Positions 6,729-22,178 of a DNA stretch of 26,819 nt are shown in pieces. Position 1 is the first letter of the stretch. The number at the start of each line of letters is the position of its first letter. The DNA is from Chthoniobacterales bacterium (lineage in GTDB: Bacteria; Verrucomicrobiota; Verrucomicrobiia; Chthoniobacterales; Chthoniobacteraceae), in NCBI GenBank assembly GCA_038207335.1, contig JBBQZX010000041.1, positions 1-26,819 of the forward strand. The letters are read 5' to 3'. The position numbers were made by a program, and so were the translations under genes. Below the pieces are notes generated by a model, which was given only the letters and a program-made list of their open reading frames with translations, made no database searches and was not told the DNA's origin.

Positions 6729-7154
6729 TTAGCGGTCTGGAAACACAGCAATATCAAGAATTTCCGCGGCATCGCGGATTCGTTTGTCAGTCGTGCAAAG
6801 TGGGAAGTCCTGACTGAGATCGCACGCCGCGGTGTGGATCGCATCCAGCGTGCGCAAAGGAACCTGAGGATGACACGACTCAAGAATGCGATTTGCTTTT
6901 CGCAGCGTAACGTCATTCAGCGCATGCAAAGCGATCTGCTCGGTCTCAATCCAGTATTTGAAAGTCTTCCAAGCCGTCGCCCGATCCATCGAACTCAGCT
7001 TCCCATTACGCTCCTTTGCGAGCAACGCCGACCACACCTCAGTCAGGGCAAGCTCGGAAGTTGACAGCGACAGACCATTGACCTTTTCGTCAAAGAAGTC
7101 GCTGTCCGGTTCCGGCACCAGCAGTTTGATGATGATCGCGGTATCGAGATACAT
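6729..7154 (-). CDS. vapC: PIN-domain (VapC family) toxin
   Basis: YLDTA N-terminus, ELALTEV, LRTLDAIH and TTDKR supply the four PIN acidic residues. 141 aa, starting 3 nt after an antitoxin gene. Confidence 0.9.
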   Translation of the reverse strand: MYLDTAIIIKLLVPEPDSDFFDEKVNGLSLSTSELALTEVWSALLAKERNGKLSSMDRATAWKTFKYWIETEQIALHALNDVTLRKANRILESCHPQVPLRTLDAIHTAACDLSQDFPLCTTDKRIRDAAEILDIAVFPDR

Positions 7155-7157
7155 CGG

Positions 7158-7484
7158 CTACCAGTCGCGCCCGTCGCGGTCCGCGCGGACGATTTCTTCC
7201 GCAGGCGGCCCGCCGGTCCATGCAGTCATCTTTTTGAGGTGATTTGCCGCTCCGAGGAATACTTTGCGCCGCTTCCGCGACTTGAATGGCGTGATCCATA
7301 CCTTCGGTGTGCCGTCGCTCGTTACGACGACCTCCCGCCCGCGCGAAACCCATTCGAGAAGGCCCGAGAAGTGCGCTTTCGCTGCGCGGATGCTTATGCT
7401 CTCACCTATCCCTGGCAGGACGGCAATCTCCTGCGCAACAGATAGTTCCATGGGCTCCTCGGCCTCGATTGGTGGTCGCTTCAC
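7158..7484 (-). CDS. Phd/YefM family antitoxin
   Basis: ISIRAAKAHFSGLLEWVSRGREVVVTSDGTP is the Phd/YefM DNA-binding signature. Start is GTG 7484 or ATG 7451. Confidence 0.88.
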   Translation of the reverse strand: MKRPPIEAEEPMELSVAQEIAVLPGIGESISIRAAKAHFSGLLEWVSRGREVVVTSDGTPKVWITPFKSRKRRKVFLGAANHLKKMTAWTGGPPAEEIVRADRDGRDW

Positions 7485-10285: not shown

Positions 10286-11911
10286 TTGAAAAAACTCGCC
10301 ATCTTGAAACCCGCGCTCTGGCTCTGCTTTTTCGCCCTCCTCGCGGGCCTCGCGCGCTGCCACGACTTGCGCGAAGTCTTCGTGGAAAATCGCGTCTTTT
10401 TCCTCGATGGCGACTGCTACTCCCGCATGACCCGCGCGCGCATCATCGACTCAGGCGCGGCGGCGTTCGTGCGCCATCACGACTTCGAAAACTACCCGCA
10501 GGGCATCGAGACGCACACGACCGCACCGATGGATTACCTCATCGTCGCACTGCGCTGGTGCGTCGATGTCGTCTTGAAAATCGCGGACCCGTCCAGCACG
10601 AGCGTCCTCTGCGGCCAGACGCTCGATGTCGCGGGCGCGCTCGTCTCGCCGCTGCTCGGCGTGGCGACATGCATCTGGCTCGGCATCTGGTCGCGCCGCT
10701 GGGGCCTCGACCGCACGCGCGCGCCGGACGAGCCGCGCGGCCTCTGGCTCGCCGTGCCGCTCTTCTTCGCGGTCAATCCTATCCTCGTACACGGCACCGT
10801 CCTCGGCCGGCCCGATCACCAGTCGCTACTCATCGCGCTCATCGCCGTAGCGCTCGGCGCGGAGAGCCGCCAGGCGGCGGGGCCGTCGCGCGCGTGGGCG
10901 ATCGTTGGCGGTTTGGCGTGGGCGCTTTCGCTTTGGGTTTCAATTTACGAGCCACTCGTGCTGCTCGCGGTCGTCCTCATCGCGTGGGCCATCTGCAAGC
11001 CGCGCCAGCTCATCGCACGCGCACGCCTCGCCGGTCTCGTCGCCATGCTCGCAGTCGGCGGCATCGCATTGGCCATCGACGGCTGGCGTGTCCACCCACT
11101 CGGGCCCGGCATGTTCGTTTATTTAGAAAGGTGGAACCAAACGATCGGCGAACTCGCCCATGCTGACTTCACCACCCTCTTCCGCTGGCTCGGCTGGGGC
11201 TGCATAGCGACGCCCATCCTGCTCATCCTCGCCGCCCGCACGCACCGCCGCGCGCTGCTACTGCTTGCGCTCGTCGCCCTTCTCCTCGCGCTCACCGTAT
11301 GGCAAGTCCGCTGGGGCTACTTCCTCGCGCTCGCCTTCGCCATGACGCTCCCCTGGCAGCTCGCAGTCCTCCGCCGAGGCTGGATCGCGTGCGCCTTCCT
11401 CCTCATCTCGATGTGGCCGATCGCCCGGGACTGGGACGCCCTCCTTTTCCCAAACGAAGCCGCTCAAAAGCAGCGCGAACTCGGCCGCGCCGAAAACATC
11501 CTGCTCCGCCAAACCGCCGAGCACATGCGCTCCCCCGACGTGCGCCCGTTCCTCGCACCGTGGTGGATTTCGCCCGCAATCGCCTACTGGTCCGGCCAGC
11601 CTGGGGTCGCCGGCAGCTCGCACGAGAGCCTGCCCGGCATCGTCGATACCGCGCGCTTTTATCTCGCGCCTGCGGCGAACAATGGCGCGCCGATCCTGCT
11701 CGCGCGCGGCATCAAATGGCTCATCGCCGACGACGACGAACGCGAAATCGCGAACTCCGAAGAACTCCTCGCCACCACAGCCCCCGAGCCCGCACTCGCC
11801 ACGCTGCTCATCCAGCAGCCGCACAGCGTAGCGCCATTTCTTCAGCCCGTTTTTGCCAACGATTACTTCAAGCTCTTCGCCGTCGATCACTCTAAATTCC
11901 CTCATGACTGA
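10286..11911 (+). CDS. STT3/AglB-like oligosaccharyltransferase (GT-C fold membrane glycosyltransferase)
   Basis: Many TM helices with OST motifs in the canonical order: DGDCY (10406), ENYPQG, GRPDHQ (10814), TIGE (11141), QVRWGYF, PWWISPAIAYW (11561), GIVDTARFYL and GIKWLIAD. Start is uncertain (TTG 10286 or 10304). Confidence 0.75.
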   Translation: MKKLAILKPALWLCFFALLAGLARCHDLREVFVENRVFFLDGDCYSRMTRARIIDSGAAAFVRHHDFENYPQGIETHTTAPMDYLIVALRWCVDVVLKIADPSSTSVLCGQTLDVAGALVSPLLGVATCIWLGIWSRRWGLDRTRAPDEPRGLWLAVPLFFAVNPILVHGTVLGRPDHQSLLIALIAVALGAESRQAAGPSRAWAIVGGLAWALSLWVSIYEPLVLLAVVLIAWAICKPRQLIARARLAGLVAMLAVGGIALAIDGWRVHPLGPGMFVYLERWNQTIGELAHADFTTLFRWLGWGCIATPILLILAARTHRRALLLLALVALLLALTVWQVRWGYFLALAFAMTLPWQLAVLRRGWIACAFLLISMWPIARDWDALLFPNEAAQKQRELGRAENILLRQTAEHMRSPDVRPFLAPWWISPAIAYWSGQPGVAGSSHESLPGIVDTARFYLAPAANNGAPILLARGIKWLIADDDEREIANSEELLATTAPEPALATLLIQQPHSVAPFLQPVFANDYFKLFAVDHSKFPHD

Positions 11912-13307
11912 GCCCTTTGATTTCATCGTGATCGGCGGCGGCAGCGCAGGCTACGCGGGCGCATCCACCGCCGCGCGGCTTGGCCTCCGCGTCGCCGTCA
12001 TCGAGAGCGCGGAGAAAATGGGCGGCCTCTGCATTCTGCGCGGCTGCATGCCGAGCAAAGCGCTGCTGGAGTCCGCCCTCCGCGCCGAGACGATCCGCCG
12101 CGCCGCGGAGTTTGGCCTGCGCGCCGAATACCTCGGCGCCGACGGCCCCGCCATCCTCGCGCGCAAGCGGCGGCTCATCTCCGAATTCGCCGATTACCGC
12201 CGCGACCAACTCGAAAGCGGTCGCTTCGAACTCATCCGCGGCCGCGCCGAATTCACCGATCCCCAGACGCTGAAAATCGCCCTCCTCGACGGCACCGAGC
12301 GCGAGGTCAAAGGCCGCGCATTCCTGATTGCCACAGGCTCGCGCATCCATCGAGTCGCCATTCCCGGACTCGAGGAAACCGGCTCTTGGGACAGCGACGA
12401 AGCGCTCGAATCCGCGCACATTCCGGGCTCGGTAATCGTGCTTGGCGGCGGCGCCATCGCGCTGGAATCTGCGAGCTACTACGCCGGCCTCGGCTCGCAA
12501 GTCACCGTCCTCCAGCGAGGCCCGCATGTGCTGAAAGAGTTCGACCCCGACGTGGCCGGCGCGCTCGCAGCTGCGATGGAAAAGCGCGGCATTCGCGTCC
12601 TCTGCGACACCTCGCTCCAGCGCTGCGAAAAGCGCGGCGAGCAGAAGATCGTCACTTTTTCCAGGAATGGCGAAACGCACACCGTCGAGGCCGAGCAAAT
12701 CATCTATGGCCTCGGCCGCGAGCCGCTCACCGGCGGCCTCGGCCTCGACCGCGCCGGCGTCGTCCTCGGAGCAAAAGGCGTCCGCATCGACGACACACTC
12801 CAGACCAGCGTCCCGCACATCTTCGCCGCCGGCGATGTCTGCGGGCCATACGAGGTCGTCCACGTCGCAATCCAGCAGGCCGAATACGCCGCGCGCAACG
12901 CTGCGCGACTCCACCGCGCCGCATCCGAGCCTCTCGAAAACATCGACTACTCGCTCAAACTTTTCGCCGTCTTCACTCACCCCGAAGTCGCTATGGTCGG
13001 CTACAACGAACGCGAAGCCGCAGCGCGCGAAATCGGCTGCGCCACCGCGACGTATCCATTTGCCGATCACGGAAAATCCATGGTCCGCGGCGAGACCGAC
13101 GGCTTCGTGAAGCTCATCGCCGAGTGCAGCACGCGGCGCATCGTCGGCGCCTCCGTCATCGGTCCCGACGCCTCGGAACTCATCCACGAAATCGCGGTCG
13201 CAATGTATTTCAAAGCCACCGCCGCGGACCTCGCGCGCGTCCCGCATTACCACCCGACGCTCAGCGAAATCTGGACCTACCCCGCCGAGGAGCTCGCCGA
13301 AAAATAG
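11904..13307 (+). CDS. Pyridine nucleotide-disulfide oxidoreductase, dihydrolipoamide dehydrogenase-like (class I)
   Basis: FAD motif IGGGSAG, redox-active GGLCILRGCMPSK, ATGS, second Rossmann GGGAIA, IFAAGD and C-terminal HPTLSE. No MerA C-terminal Cys pair. ATG overlaps the upstream stop (ATGACTGA). Confidence 0.9.
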   Translation: MTEPFDFIVIGGGSAGYAGASTAARLGLRVAVIESAEKMGGLCILRGCMPSKALLESALRAETIRRAAEFGLRAEYLGADGPAILARKRRLISEFADYRRDQLESGRFELIRGRAEFTDPQTLKIALLDGTEREVKGRAFLIATGSRIHRVAIPGLEETGSWDSDEALESAHIPGSVIVLGGGAIALESASYYAGLGSQVTVLQRGPHVLKEFDPDVAGALAAAMEKRGIRVLCDTSLQRCEKRGEQKIVTFSRNGETHTVEAEQIIYGLGREPLTGGLGLDRAGVVLGAKGVRIDDTLQTSVPHIFAAGDVCGPYEVVHVAIQQAEYAARNAARLHRAASEPLENIDYSLKLFAVFTHPEVAMVGYNEREAAAREIGCATATYPFADHGKSMVRGETDGFVKLIAECSTRRIVGASVIGPDASELIHEIAVAMYFKATAADLARVPHYHPTLSEIWTYPAEELAEK

Positions 13308-13379
13308 CGCGCCCGGCGACCTCGAATCGCGTCGTTTCTTGTACCCGTGCCGTTTCCCGAACGATCGCGCACGGCGACG

Positions 13380-13408
13380 TTGACACACCATTCGCGCCGG
13401 TCAAAAGT
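13380..13408 (+). promoter_or_regulatory. Putative sigma70 promoter for bactofilin pair
   Basis: Consensus TTGACA (13380-13385), 17-nt spacer, weak -10 AAAAGT, then 5 nt to GTG 13414. Confidence 0.45.
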
Positions 13409-13413
13409 CCTCC

Positions 13414-13917
13414 GTGTTCAACAAAAACACGCCCCTGAAGTCCCCACTTTCCGAGGTTCCCGCCAACTCCATCATCGACGACCTGTTTTCATCTCAACCC
13501 AAAACCACCGCCATGTCCGACACACAAAACAACCGCAATCTCCTCTCCGCCGACGTTGAAATCAAAGGCTCCATCAAGTTCACCAATGACCTCACCATCG
13601 ATGGTAAAGTCGAAGGCGAAATCACCTCGCAGGGCACGCTGACCGTCGGTGAAAACGCCGAGATCAAAGGCGAAATCCGCACGAAGTCCGCGACTGTGCA
13701 CGGCAAAGTCATGGGCAACATCACAGTGGAAGAGCGTTGCGAGTTGAAGGCGAAAGCCGTCCTGCATGGCGACCTGAAAGCGACGCGCCTCATCATCGAG
13801 GACGGTGCGACTTTCATCGGCAAATCCGAGGTGTCTCCGAACAAAGTCACGGCCATGCGGCCCGACGCGGCGCGCACACCGGAGCAGGCGAAAGCTGCCG
13901 CCGTCGTCGCCCGCTAA
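13414..13917 (+). CDS. Bactofilin (polymer-forming cytoskeletal protein, CcmA/DUF583)
   Basis: LLSADVEIKGSIKFTNDLTIDGKVEGEI...VHGKVMGNITVEERCEL...LHGDLKATRLIIEDGATFIG beta-helix. Alternative start is ATG 13513. Confidence 0.93.
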   Translation: MFNKNTPLKSPLSEVPANSIIDDLFSSQPKTTAMSDTQNNRNLLSADVEIKGSIKFTNDLTIDGKVEGEITSQGTLTVGENAEIKGEIRTKSATVHGKVMGNITVEERCELKAKAVLHGDLKATRLIIEDGATFIGKSEVSPNKVTAMRPDAARTPEQAKAAAVVAR

Positions 13918-13929
13918 TCCGGGCCCCTC

Positions 13930-14703
13930 GTGGCCAGCAGCAATACCCCGAAGCAACCCGAGAAAATCAGTGCGGACTGCCCGCACTGTGGCTTCAGCCA
14001 ACTCGAGTCGGCTTACGCAAAGTCCACTTTCTGCCGGAAGTGCGGCGAGCATTTCAGCATCGAGAAGCTGTTACTGAAAGAGACGGAGAGCCTCAAGGGG
14101 CCTTCGTTCTTCGACAAAATCTCGAAGCTCGTCTCGCGCGAAAAAATCCGGGACGTCGCGTGCTTTAGTTGCCACGCGCGGCAGGAGGTGAGTACCGAGG
14201 CGCAATCGACCTCCTGCCCACAGTGCGGCTCCTACATCGACCTGCGCGACTTCAAAATCGCGGGGCCATTTGGACGCAGCATCCAGACGCAGGGCGAAGT
14301 CGTCATCACGTCAAAAGGCGACGTTGCCGCCGCGCGCATCGCGTGCGGCTCAGCGCTCGTCGAGGGAAAGCTGAAAGGCGTGCTGTTTTGCACCGGCACC
14401 GCGCGGCTGAAGATGCGCGGGCGCTTTGTCGGCGGCATCGAAGTCCACAATCTCGTCGTGGATAAAAGCGCGGAGATCGAATTCACGAAGCCGGTGAAAG
14501 TCGGCGGGATCGAAATCAACGGTAAAGTCCAGGGCCACATCATTTGCGACGGCTGCGTGACGATCAACAAAGGCGGCACGCTGACCGGCAACATCCACGC
14601 CCGCGCTGTGAATTTTGAAAAGGGCGGGATTTATTCTGGCAACCTGACGATCGGAGAGCCCGAAGTCGCCGGGGCGGAAGTCGCTAAAGACGTCGCGTCG
14701 TAG
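13930..14703 (+). CDS. Double zinc-ribbon plus bactofilin-domain protein
   Basis: Four CxxC motifs (CPHC, CRKC, CFSC, CPQC) followed by bactofilin-like beta-helix repeats ending LTGNIHARAVNFEKGGIYSG. Confidence 0.82.
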   Translation: MASSNTPKQPEKISADCPHCGFSQLESAYAKSTFCRKCGEHFSIEKLLLKETESLKGPSFFDKISKLVSREKIRDVACFSCHARQEVSTEAQSTSCPQCGSYIDLRDFKIAGPFGRSIQTQGEVVITSKGDVAAARIACGSALVEGKLKGVLFCTGTARLKMRGRFVGGIEVHNLVVDKSAEIEFTKPVKVGGIEINGKVQGHIICDGCVTINKGGTLTGNIHARAVNFEKGGIYSGNLTIGEPEVAGAEVAKDVAS

Positions 14704-20696: not shown

Positions 20697-22178
20697 ATGG
20701 CGAACGACTCCTACCGCTACGACGACGATGACGCGCAGCCGCGCGGAAAGGACAACCTGTTTCTGTGGACAGTTTTCATCCTGCTGCTGATCGGCGTCGC
20801 GTTCGCGTGCTGGCTCGGGAGCTTCTACATTTTCGGCCACCCGGAGAATCCGAAAGCGTATCGGATTTTGAAAAAGCTGCACAAACTGGAGGCACCGAAA
20901 CGCTTCGAGGTGACGGCGGCGCCGCGCGGTGATTTTTCGAGCGCACAAAAACTTTACGAGCGTTACGGCAGCCTCACGCGGCTGGAGATGGAGCGGGAAA
21001 ATGGGGAACTGCTGCGGAACTACATCAACAACTACCGCGACACGAAAAAGCTCGTGGCTTACATCCGCGGTCGGTTCAATATTTTGGATTCGTATGCGCT
21101 GAAAAAAGGGGACTTTTTCGAGACAGGCGTGGTCGCGCTGGCGCAGGCGGCGGAGTATCCGAAGGTGCTGATCGAGCACGTCTATCCATCCGCGGCGGAG
21201 ACGGTGCCGATGCTGGAAAATATGCTACAGACAGGGCTCGGGATGAGCATCGAGCGGACGCTGGATTTGTCGGCGATCATCCATGTGGAGCGCATCCCGG
21301 ATGGGCGACTGATGTTCACGGTGGTGCCTCTCTTATATGGAACGTATGCGCTGAAGCAGGGGGAAGGCACGTTTGGGCTGGAGCCGCCGGAGGACTTGAA
21401 TCCGGCGGGCGGGGTGCCGATCACGAAGCCGAAGGAGCTGCAGGATGGGCTAAAGAAATATGCAGATTTTCGGCGGCAGAATCCGCCGGCGAATAGCGAG
21501 ACGATGGACACGACGATGCCGGTGAAGAAGAGTGAAGAACTGGTGCGGCTCGATGCGATTCCCGAGGGGGCAAAGGTGCCCGAGACTGGCGCGCTGCCAC
21601 CGATGCCAGTGGCGACGCCGATCCCGCTGCACGCCGCCGCGACTCCACGAAAGGCGACTCCACCGCCCCTGGTGGCGATGCTAGCGACGCCTCGGCCCGT
21701 GCCTGTCGCGACGCCGATCCCCTTGGCGACTCCGATTCCGCGGATGTCGCCGCAGGGCGTGCCGCTGACACCATTCATCGCGGCGAATCCGGCGCCCGGA
21801 TTGCCGGATGCGAACAGCGGAAAGTGGCGCACGTATGCTGCGGGGAAATTGCCGCCGGGGCGCACGGTGGATGCGGTGGAGGCTGCATCGCTCGCGGGGC
21901 GCGGGGATCTCGGGGAGAAGGTGTATTTGAGCGGGCAATTCGTCGTGACGGCGAGTGGCGAGAGCACGGCGATTTTGCGTCCGCAATCGACTGTGGATCC
22001 GTCGCGCCCGGCACCGGCGCCGACGCGAATTATTGTGGAATTTCCGGCGGGCTACGTTCCGCCGGCAGAAGGCAAATCATTTGCGCGAGATGCTTCGCGG
22101 GCATTCGAGGTGCGCGATGTGCGGCGCGGCGCGGATGGGCAAATCAATATCTACGTGAGGGAAGTCATCGGGGGGTGA
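20697..22178 (+). CDS. Hypothetical single-pass membrane protein with Pro/Thr-rich linker
   Basis: 493-aa ORF with an N-terminal TM helix (LFLWTVFILLLIGVAFACWLGSFYIF), a globular region, an xATP(I/R)P repeat linker and a C-terminal globular domain. Confidence 0.8.
   Translation: MANDSYRYDDDDAQPRGKDNLFLWTVFILLLIGVAFACWLGSFYIFGHPENPKAYRILKKLHKLEAPKRFEVTAAPRGDFSSAQKLYERYGSLTRLEMERENGELLRNYINNYRDTKKLVAYIRGRFNILDSYALKKGDFFETGVVALAQAAEYPKVLIEHVYPSAAETVPMLENMLQTGLGMSIERTLDLSAIIHVERIPDGRLMFTVVPLLYGTYALKQGEGTFGLEPPEDLNPAGGVPITKPKELQDGLKKYADFRRQNPPANSETMDTTMPVKKSEELVRLDAIPEGAKVPETGALPPMPVATPIPLHAAATPRKATPPPLVAMLATPRPVPVATPIPLATPIPRMSPQGVPLTPFIAANPAPGLPDANSGKWRTYAAGKLPPGRTVDAVEAASLAGRGDLGEKVYLSGQFVVTASGESTAILRPQSTVDPSRPAPAPTRIIVEFPAGYVPPAEGKSFARDASRAFEVRDVRRGADGQINIYVREVIGG

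Follow-up and report, generated by a model that had tools for sequence, protein, structure and literature searches.

A 541-residue membrane protein encoded in Chthoniobacterales DNA descends from the STT3/AglB/PglB lineage of oligosaccharyltransferases, a conclusion that is well supported, and the family to which it belongs has lost the Asp of the WWD motif. We consider it somewhat probable that this protein is a WWD-less transferase of that lineage that glycosylates exported proteins outside N-X-S/T, using a sugar or short glycan linked to a lipid phosphate. The gene is an open reading frame with a TTG start and no internal stop in the window (the whole stretch of 26,819 nucleotides that was analysed), an identical protein is present in protein records (P0002), and gyrB is transcribed divergently from it. 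The preliminary description of this DNA had pointed to a frame of ~540 codons with STT3 motifs in order, and D41 (10406), D177 (10814), T286 (11141) and W426 (11561) all lie where it had placed them. In the list below, counts out of 120 refer to close homologs and counts out of 98 to diverse homologs, the latter being representatives of 470-690 residues kept from 148 new identifiers, plus the query.

10286..11911, + strand: GT-C membrane protein of the STT3 lineage, with ~11 membrane helices and, at the C terminus, an AglB-like core domain
10406..10435, + strand: EL1 motif DxDCYxRMxR; D43 (120/120, 96/98), which aligns with the EL1 Asp of the PglB-like proteins, is predicted to correspond to AfAglB D47 and ClPglB D56 (metal ligand, acceptor activation)
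10514..10516, + strand: H77, predicted lipid-phosphate contact (120/120, 94/98), an equivalence suggested by its position 34 residues past D43, the AfAglB D47-H81 spacing
10793..10822, + strand: EL2, G170...R175-P-D177-H178-Q179, with Gly/Ala for the canonical EL2 Arg and an invariant Gln at the third DxD/H position
10934..10951, + strand: EL3, W217-x-S-x-x-E222(P); E222 (120/120, 98/98) is an extra invariant acid and a candidate compensating ligand or base
11141..11152, + strand: EL5 xIGE, the TIxE/SVSE counterpart, aligned to PglB-like ITEL; E289 (120/120, 96/98), T286 (64/120, 32/98)
11309..11311, + strand: R342, the EL6 Arg (counterpart of AfAglB R426 and ClPglB R375) and a predicted phosphate contact (120/120, 97/98)
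11480..11887, + strand: C-terminal periplasmic core domain, ~residues 399-534, nearest to AfAglB-S1/S2 (3vu0 Z 12.9, rmsd 2.4 over 132 residues; 3vgp profile E 3.4e-8)
11561..11575, + strand: WWISP in place of WWDYG, with Trp-Trp kept, the third residue free, S-P starting the next helix and the loop one residue shorter
11612..11638, + strand: GSSH[EQ]SLPG loop at the DGGK/NPFQ position by AfAglB-S alignment; H446 (120/120, 96/98) is a predicted donor-sugar or peptide contact

An AlphaFold2 model built on a 115-sequence alignment (pLDDT 96.0, pTM 0.94) returned STT3, AglB and PglB structures at all of Foldseek ranks 1-19, followed by DPY19, AftD, ALG12 and ArnT. With VIA-align, the top 11 rows were STT3 (Z 22.6-25.8, rmsd 3.2-3.5 over 474-494 residues), ahead of DPY19 (Z 21.4, rmsd 4.1), AglB (21.2, 3.0), PglB (19.8, 3.3), ArnT (19.7, 5.0) and ALG12 (19.2, 5.2), and an independent wide structural search agreed with this ranking. 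Pmt4 reached Z 20.4 over the membrane part only, and Pmt matches spanned only residues 2-393; the helix count would suit a PMT/POMT enzyme, but the protein carries an AglB-type C-terminal core. STT3/AglB-labelled clusters, together with one Dpy19-labelled cluster, were found in the Atlas at 0.97-0.98. When family profiles were searched against the PDB, the sole sequence matches (2 of 177,635 sequences) were the C-terminal domains of AfAglB-S1 and AfAglB-S2 (E 3.4e-8 and 3.4e-6), and a single-sequence search gave AfAglB-S alone (E 1.1). Foldseek, VIA-align and profile matches agree on the STT3/AglB/PglB ancestry that had been proposed, and no non-STT3 GT-C family was the best structural match, ArnT and ALG12 being worse than STT3.

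The polytopic membrane fold and the conserved EL1 acidic residue (D43) place the protein in the GT-C superfamily. As in GT66 (STT3/AglB/PglB), its best structural match is an STT3 fold with C-terminal core, and it has the first DxD (D41-x-D43), the EL5 Glu and the EL6 Arg; it lacks a Pfam or NCBIfam model, the EL2 Rx6DxD/H motif, WWDYG and the 13 helices. At E<=1, 0 Pfam or NCBIfam families were found for P0002, and an STT3 family match was likewise absent in the 7 close and 5 distant homologs tested. Model helices and averaged hydropathy give ~11 membrane helices, short of the 13 of the AglB reference (PMC8342417). However, six WWD-bearing PglB-like proteins (P0270-P0275, from Kiritimatiellae/Desulfobacterales), whose profile matches ClPglB at E 6.5e-38, likewise show 11 hydropathy peaks plus an EL1 helix, and so the helix count is not tied to loss of WWD.

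The protein had been described as archaeal-type, which fits the core domain and some residues (H77, H178) and not the whole fold, which is nearer to eukaryotic STT3 than to AglB; in overall score, DPY19 ties AglB. Archaeoglobus fulgidus AglB-L (3WAJ, 7E9S, 5GMY) gave the lowest rmsd (2.9-3.1 over 463-487 residues) and shares the D-H at EL2, the His 34 residues past the EL1 Asp, the EL5 Glu and the EL6 Arg, and AfAglB-S1/S2 (3VGP, 3VU0), the only PDB sequence matches, have the same compact core-only C-terminal domain. In contrast to AfAglB, which has WWDYG, the protein has WWxSP with a one-residue deletion, Gln at the His163 position, no EL2 Arg, ~11 rather than 13 helices and no recognisable DK motif, and identity is 14-16%. 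Yeast Stt3 and human STT3A/B (8AGE, 8PN9, 6S7T) scored highest (Foldseek E 1.8e-13; TM-score 0.66-0.73 by query) at 10-13% identity; unlike them, the family is without WWDYG, SVSE, the double-sequon and DK motifs, and here there is a single gene. Campylobacter PglB (3RCE, 5OGL, 6GXC) scored Z 19.2-19.8, whereas the family is without WWD, DGGK and a pgl locus and has DHQ for DxD.

The motifs are near-invariant in the 120 of 120 close and the 98 diverse homologs, which argues against chance, and, in an alignment of 94 diverse members with P0270-P0275, they lie in register with the PglB-like profile (hhalign probability 94.6, E 6.5e-8). The 94 sequences, with identity down to 28%, contain 15 invariant columns concentrated in active-site loops. 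The residue equivalences that follow are predictions from these profile alignments. Six catalytic residues are named for ClPglB: D56, R147, D154, D156 (His in AglB), E319 and R375 (PMC6801728); in AfAglB, D47, D161 and His163 are the metal ligands and H81 and R426 lie near the phosphate (PMC8342417). By these assignments four of the six would be kept, as D43 (96/98), D177 (97/98), E289 (96/98) and R342 (97/98), and two changed, the R147 position being Gly/Ala (92/98) and the D156/His163 position Gln (97/98). The view that the metal and catalytic acids are retained therefore applies at D43, D177, E289 and R342; it fails at G170, which stands in place of the EL2 Arg, and at Q179, the third residue of DxD/H. 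The role of the EL1 Asp as metal ligand and in acceptor activation is drawn from PMC8342417 and PMC6801728.

DHQ, likened previously to the DHH of AglB, keeps the D-H, with H178 (96-97/98) matching AfAglB H162, but has an invariant Gln for the metal-ligand His. In the same way, the Glu of the EL5 motif read as TIGE, or TIxE, is conserved and its Thr is variable, with I287 kept in 81/98 diverse homologs; the contact of the sequon with TIXE is described as main-chain (PMC8342417), which fits a variable T286 beside a conserved E289. CjPglB H479, in the DGGKH loop, is required for activity (PMC3527161). In the model, a helix spans residues 484-495, and R486 (74/98) could occupy the position of the DK-motif Lys, although no DK/MI motif is assignable. 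The further conserved polar residues R175, E68, D83, E222 and H446 could, we infer from alignment, rebuild the active site.

Retention of D43, D177, H178, E289 and R342 in 96-97 of 98 homologs is as expected of an active enzyme. The replacement of the EL2 Arg and of the His/Asp metal ligand, and the clean absence of the gene from some relatives, would suit a catalytically dead or non-transferase remnant that binds or hydrolyses lipid-glycans or acts as a scaffold. Such a remnant is very improbable, given invariant columns that fall mainly in active-site loops and a gene kept in most of the order's genomes.

To our knowledge, descriptions of oligosaccharyltransferases treat WWD as strictly conserved, and it accounts for the need for Ser/Thr at +2 in N-glycosylation. 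In the family studied here, WWDxG occurs in 0 of 268 homologs, so that the alternative of homologs that all carry WWD was not seen and a degenerate allele, which we had entertained, is ruled out. Among homologs with a readable motif, only 1 of 237 has Asp at the third position, and none of the 120 close homologs does; in the 98 diverse homologs this residue is L in 44, I in 13, Q in 8, F in 8, E in 5, D in 1 and others in the remainder. The Trp residues are kept (W426 in 89/98, with Tyr/Phe in 7/98; W427 in 96/98). A gap of one residue after WW was found in 3 of 4 profile alignments, the 3vu0 alignments being ungapped there. The claim that Ile replaces the WWD Asp holds insofar as the Asp is lost family-wide; the change is better described, on alignment evidence, as an apparently unconstrained third position plus a one-residue deletion after WW than as a swap of Asp for Ile. 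The 79 genome loci examined are likewise without WWD but add little on this point, because the WWxSP pattern was used in part to find them.

Could the protein still be an ordinary N-X-S/T oligosaccharyltransferase, with a +2 pocket rebuilt from the two Trp residues plus S429, H446 and R486? The conservation of W426, W427 and E289, the frequent R486 near the position of the DK/MI helix, and the fact that this is the sole full STT3-like gene found in the source genome are compatible with such an enzyme, but we judge it improbable. The +2 pocket has been defined as WWD plus the DK/MI residue (PMC3703281), and in simulations of PglB no residue contacts the +2 position more strongly than the Asp (D465; PMC8479172). 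In CjPglB, D459V (Table 2), D459N, W457S and W458R/C inactivate the enzyme (PMC3527161); since D459V alone does so, hydrophobic residues at this position are unsuited to canonical recognition. Desulfovibrio PglBs with relaxed sequons retain WWDxG (PMC12229607). The S429 position varies (S 70, T 10, C 8, A 7 among 98) and S429-P430 start a helix in the AlphaFold model, which indicates a structural role.

Nor did the source genome give a sequon signal. A crude signal-peptide rule applied to 3351 gene calls gave 902 exported-like and 1277 cytoplasmic-like proteins. Relative to local shuffles, N-x-T was 1.09 in both exported-like and cytoplasmic-like proteins, which argues against the standard sequon, and N-x-S was 1.07 as against 1.00; in a ranking of 1560 gapped pairs, N-x-T came at place 786 and N-x-S at place 355. 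WxxW was not enriched in exported-like proteins (0.91). In PEP-CTERM proteins (45 of 48 matches, after two short frames and one duplicate were dropped), N-x-T was 1.11, no higher than in the two controls, S/T-x-N (1.12) and D-x-S/T (1.17). No sequon or motif enrichment was thus found in predicted exported proteins by these crude calls, a negative result that carries little weight because the search had no positive control. PEP-CTERM proteins, which would be the most evident substrates, were rejected as an obligate substrate, since there is no strict co-occurrence with the gene and the distributions differ: one genus (g189) has the gene in 12/12 genomes and PEP-CTERM in 0/12, and one family (f6) has the gene in 0/32 and PEP-CTERM in 14/32.

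The lack of a peptide motif signal, together with an unconstrained WWD Asp position and a W426 that may be Tyr/Phe, is also what might be seen if the protein were a GT-C enzyme acting on envelope molecules other than proteins (lipid A, the LPS core, a polysaccharide or a glycolipid), in the manner of ArnT, AftD, ALG12 and YfhO, and its sequon pocket had decayed because no peptide is read. In favour of this reading, the C-terminal dome is common to bacterial glycan-acting arabinosyltransferases (PMC10154233), and hypothetical prokaryotic proteins connect STT3/PglB with a large dark family resembling YfhO (PMC10584680). We regard it as unlikely, given that ArnT, ALG12, ALG9, AftA and AftD fit worse (rmsd 5.0-5.5 versus 2.9-3.5 for STT3/AglB), both Trp residues and the EL5 xIGE are retained, and LPS or polysaccharide genes were found neither in the window nor among the 45 commonest neighbour clusters of the 79 loci, which were read without family scans.

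One STT3 relative that reads another sequon with a WWD-less dome is DPY19, the tryptophan C-mannosyltransferase. C. elegans DPY19 (7ZLG/H/I) aligned at Z 20.9-21.4 over 508-512 residues, and a Dpy19-labelled Planctomycetota cluster was among the nearest Atlas matches (0.98). However, the rmsd is 4.1-4.2 and the WxxW ratio gives no sign of its motif. DPY19 is described as metal-independent, with ExE in EL1 and Rx6LRE in EL2 (PMC6801728, PMC10154233), whereas the family keeps DxD, D177-H178 (DHQ) and the EL5 Glu.

For the transferase acting on exported proteins, which we prefer, the following route can be proposed. The active site would face the periplasm, as suggested by the model and charge pattern. 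H77, by its spacing, and H178 and R342 match AfAglB residues beside the phosphate or metal, which suggests an AglB-like site for a polyprenyl-monophosphate donor that would be made by glycosyltransferases encoded elsewhere. D43, D177 and E289 would continue to serve metal binding and acceptor activation, with Q179, R175 and E222 replacing the lost His and Arg. An unfolded peptide may be bound through backbone pairing with xIGE and packing against both Trp residues, with no Asp to check the +2 hydroxyl. The acceptor would tentatively be an Asn amide under a new or relaxed +2 rule, favoured over a Ser/Thr hydroxyl, itself rather unlikely, because both amide-activation acids are kept. Counting against this reading are the two differing catalytic positions (G170, Q179), the near-equal scores of DPY19 and AglB (Z 21.4 versus 21.2), the dome shared with arabinosyltransferases, the lack of an enriched motif in predicted exported proteins and the differing distribution of PEP-CTERM proteins.

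The family is large. A protein search gave 2341 relatives among 8000 scored candidates, and a profile search of cluster representatives gave 1506 at E<=0.001 and 293 at 1e-30. Named relatives belong to Chthoniobacterales/Spartobacteria and include a cultured member, Chthoniobacter flavus Ellin428 (CfE428DRAFT_4377, P0062; 47% identity); the hosts are soil and freshwater bacteria. The gene is present in 207 of 301 Chthoniobacterales genomes, mostly in single copy, and in no searched genome of five families of the order (0/24, 0/32, 0/4, 0/4 and 0/1); two of the genomes behind the order-wide tallies of the gene, PEP-CTERM and bactofilin (G528, G556) are marked unpublished. In the phylum as a whole, matches came from 8 of 401 genomes: six belong to the order, and the two weak ones outside it are without WW. 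The source genome (94.7% complete) has one copy and gave no STT3 or AglB-core match over the cut-off, and a search of a plasmid collection gave no match to the family. A 1293-residue open frame in one genome (G476) was considered as a fusion and rejected as read-through antisense to gyrB; no fusion was found among longer proteins (1193-3405 residues), which is weak evidence. Another genome (G642; L090, contigs C3 and C76) has two full-length copies. Elsewhere in Verrucomicrobiota, STT3-like proteins at four loci (L087, L088, L094, L099) keep DHH and TIxE-like motifs with no WW at the WWDYG position, and two canonical-looking PglB-like proteins (L092:123-2279, L093:1189-3303) with WWDNG and a replaced DGGK come from another lineage, one with a relative named Kiritimatiellae.

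Chthoniobacterales include the abundant soil bacterium Udaeobacter. As a tentative proposal, to which we give somewhat less than an even chance, a general protein glycosylation system may extend across this order, based on an enzyme of STT3 type whose metal site has been rebuilt (D-H-Q, extra Glu) and which places glycans on Asn, Gln, Ser or Thr outside N-X-S/T; if so, it would be a natural oligosaccharyltransferase with a new sequon. With its catalytic core conserved and the Asp gone, the family provides a natural experiment on what makes a sequon. If active on peptides, the enzyme would offer glycoengineers a compact single subunit with new site rules and would represent the first protein glycosylation pathway for Chthoniobacterales, none having been found in the open-access literature searched. 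Among open-access main texts, mostly titles and the starts of abstracts, we found no paper on this STT3-like family, and PMC4973528 mentions Verrucomicrobia only in passing. What is added here is an order-wide distribution, an altered metal site, clean natural deletions and negative tests of partners.

The last two rest on the neighbourhood of the gene, which in the window continues as follows (11904..14703, given as context and not as shown partners).

11904-13307, + strand: FAD disulfide reductase, overlapping the stop of the 541-codon frame by 8 bases
13414-13917 and 13930-14703, + strand: two bactofilins in tandem

The gene had been described as stand-alone, and indeed no glycan genes adjoin it in the window. 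A promoter scan gave 0 sites, and terminators were at chance level. Of the 68 loci with enough sequence, 39 have gyrB no more than 600 bases upstream; the reductase adjoins the gene in 23 of 74 loci and a bactofilin in 24 of 74. Among eight loci of gene-lacking genomes, three have gyrB-reductase-bactofilin-bactofilin intact with a gap of 250-310 bases at the place of the gene, in the remaining five that place is taken by unrelated genes, and no gene remnant was detected. Because relatives keep the neighbours with the gene cleanly gone, the gene is dispensable, and the association with its neighbours looks like synteny kept by descent. A functional pair with the reductase was rejected on these counts, and so was a bactofilin partner, as bactofilin-2 is present in 259/301 genomes, including 22/24 of a gene-lacking family (f76). 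In the source genome there are 12 PMT_2-like matches and one GtrA match, and 13 GT2 proteins are relatives of the GT2 that sits among four membrane proteins on contig C40; this makes lipid-linked donors plausible, though none is tied to the gene.

Several features of these genomes merit mention in their own right. The second bactofilin (13930-14703) has an N-terminal double zinc-ribbon region and stands in tandem with a plain bactofilin; it occurs in 259/301 genomes and in 0/32 of family f6. Just upstream of the gene, 14 of 24 scanned loci have a tRNA whose anticodon is CAT (L035, L045, L054, L082 and others), and in all 14 bactofilins come directly after the gene. In a gene-lacking genome (G606, L105:2481-3332), a protein-coding gene, which we take to be FGE/sulfatase-like, lies upstream of the bactofilins. 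A Phd/PIN toxin-antitoxin pair lies between gyrB and gyrA (6729-7484, - strand), as in 7 of 79 related loci, and positions 20697-22178 encode a 493-residue protein that has a single membrane segment at its N terminus, a Pro-rich linker and no Pfam or NCBIfam family. The source genome also contains a candidate lipid-sugar transfer cluster (L103:1481-8876, G000:C40) of four related-looking membrane proteins of ~500-530 residues, at least two with PMT_2 matches, around one GT2. Finally, two paralogous PMT_2-like GT-C proteins (L081:1111-2901, that is G000:C7:22751-24505, and G000:C31:7141-9036) share a conserved C-terminal SDMPWAVAWY reminiscent of the WWDYG region, and one of them is the only weak STT3 match in the source genome (E 0.012).
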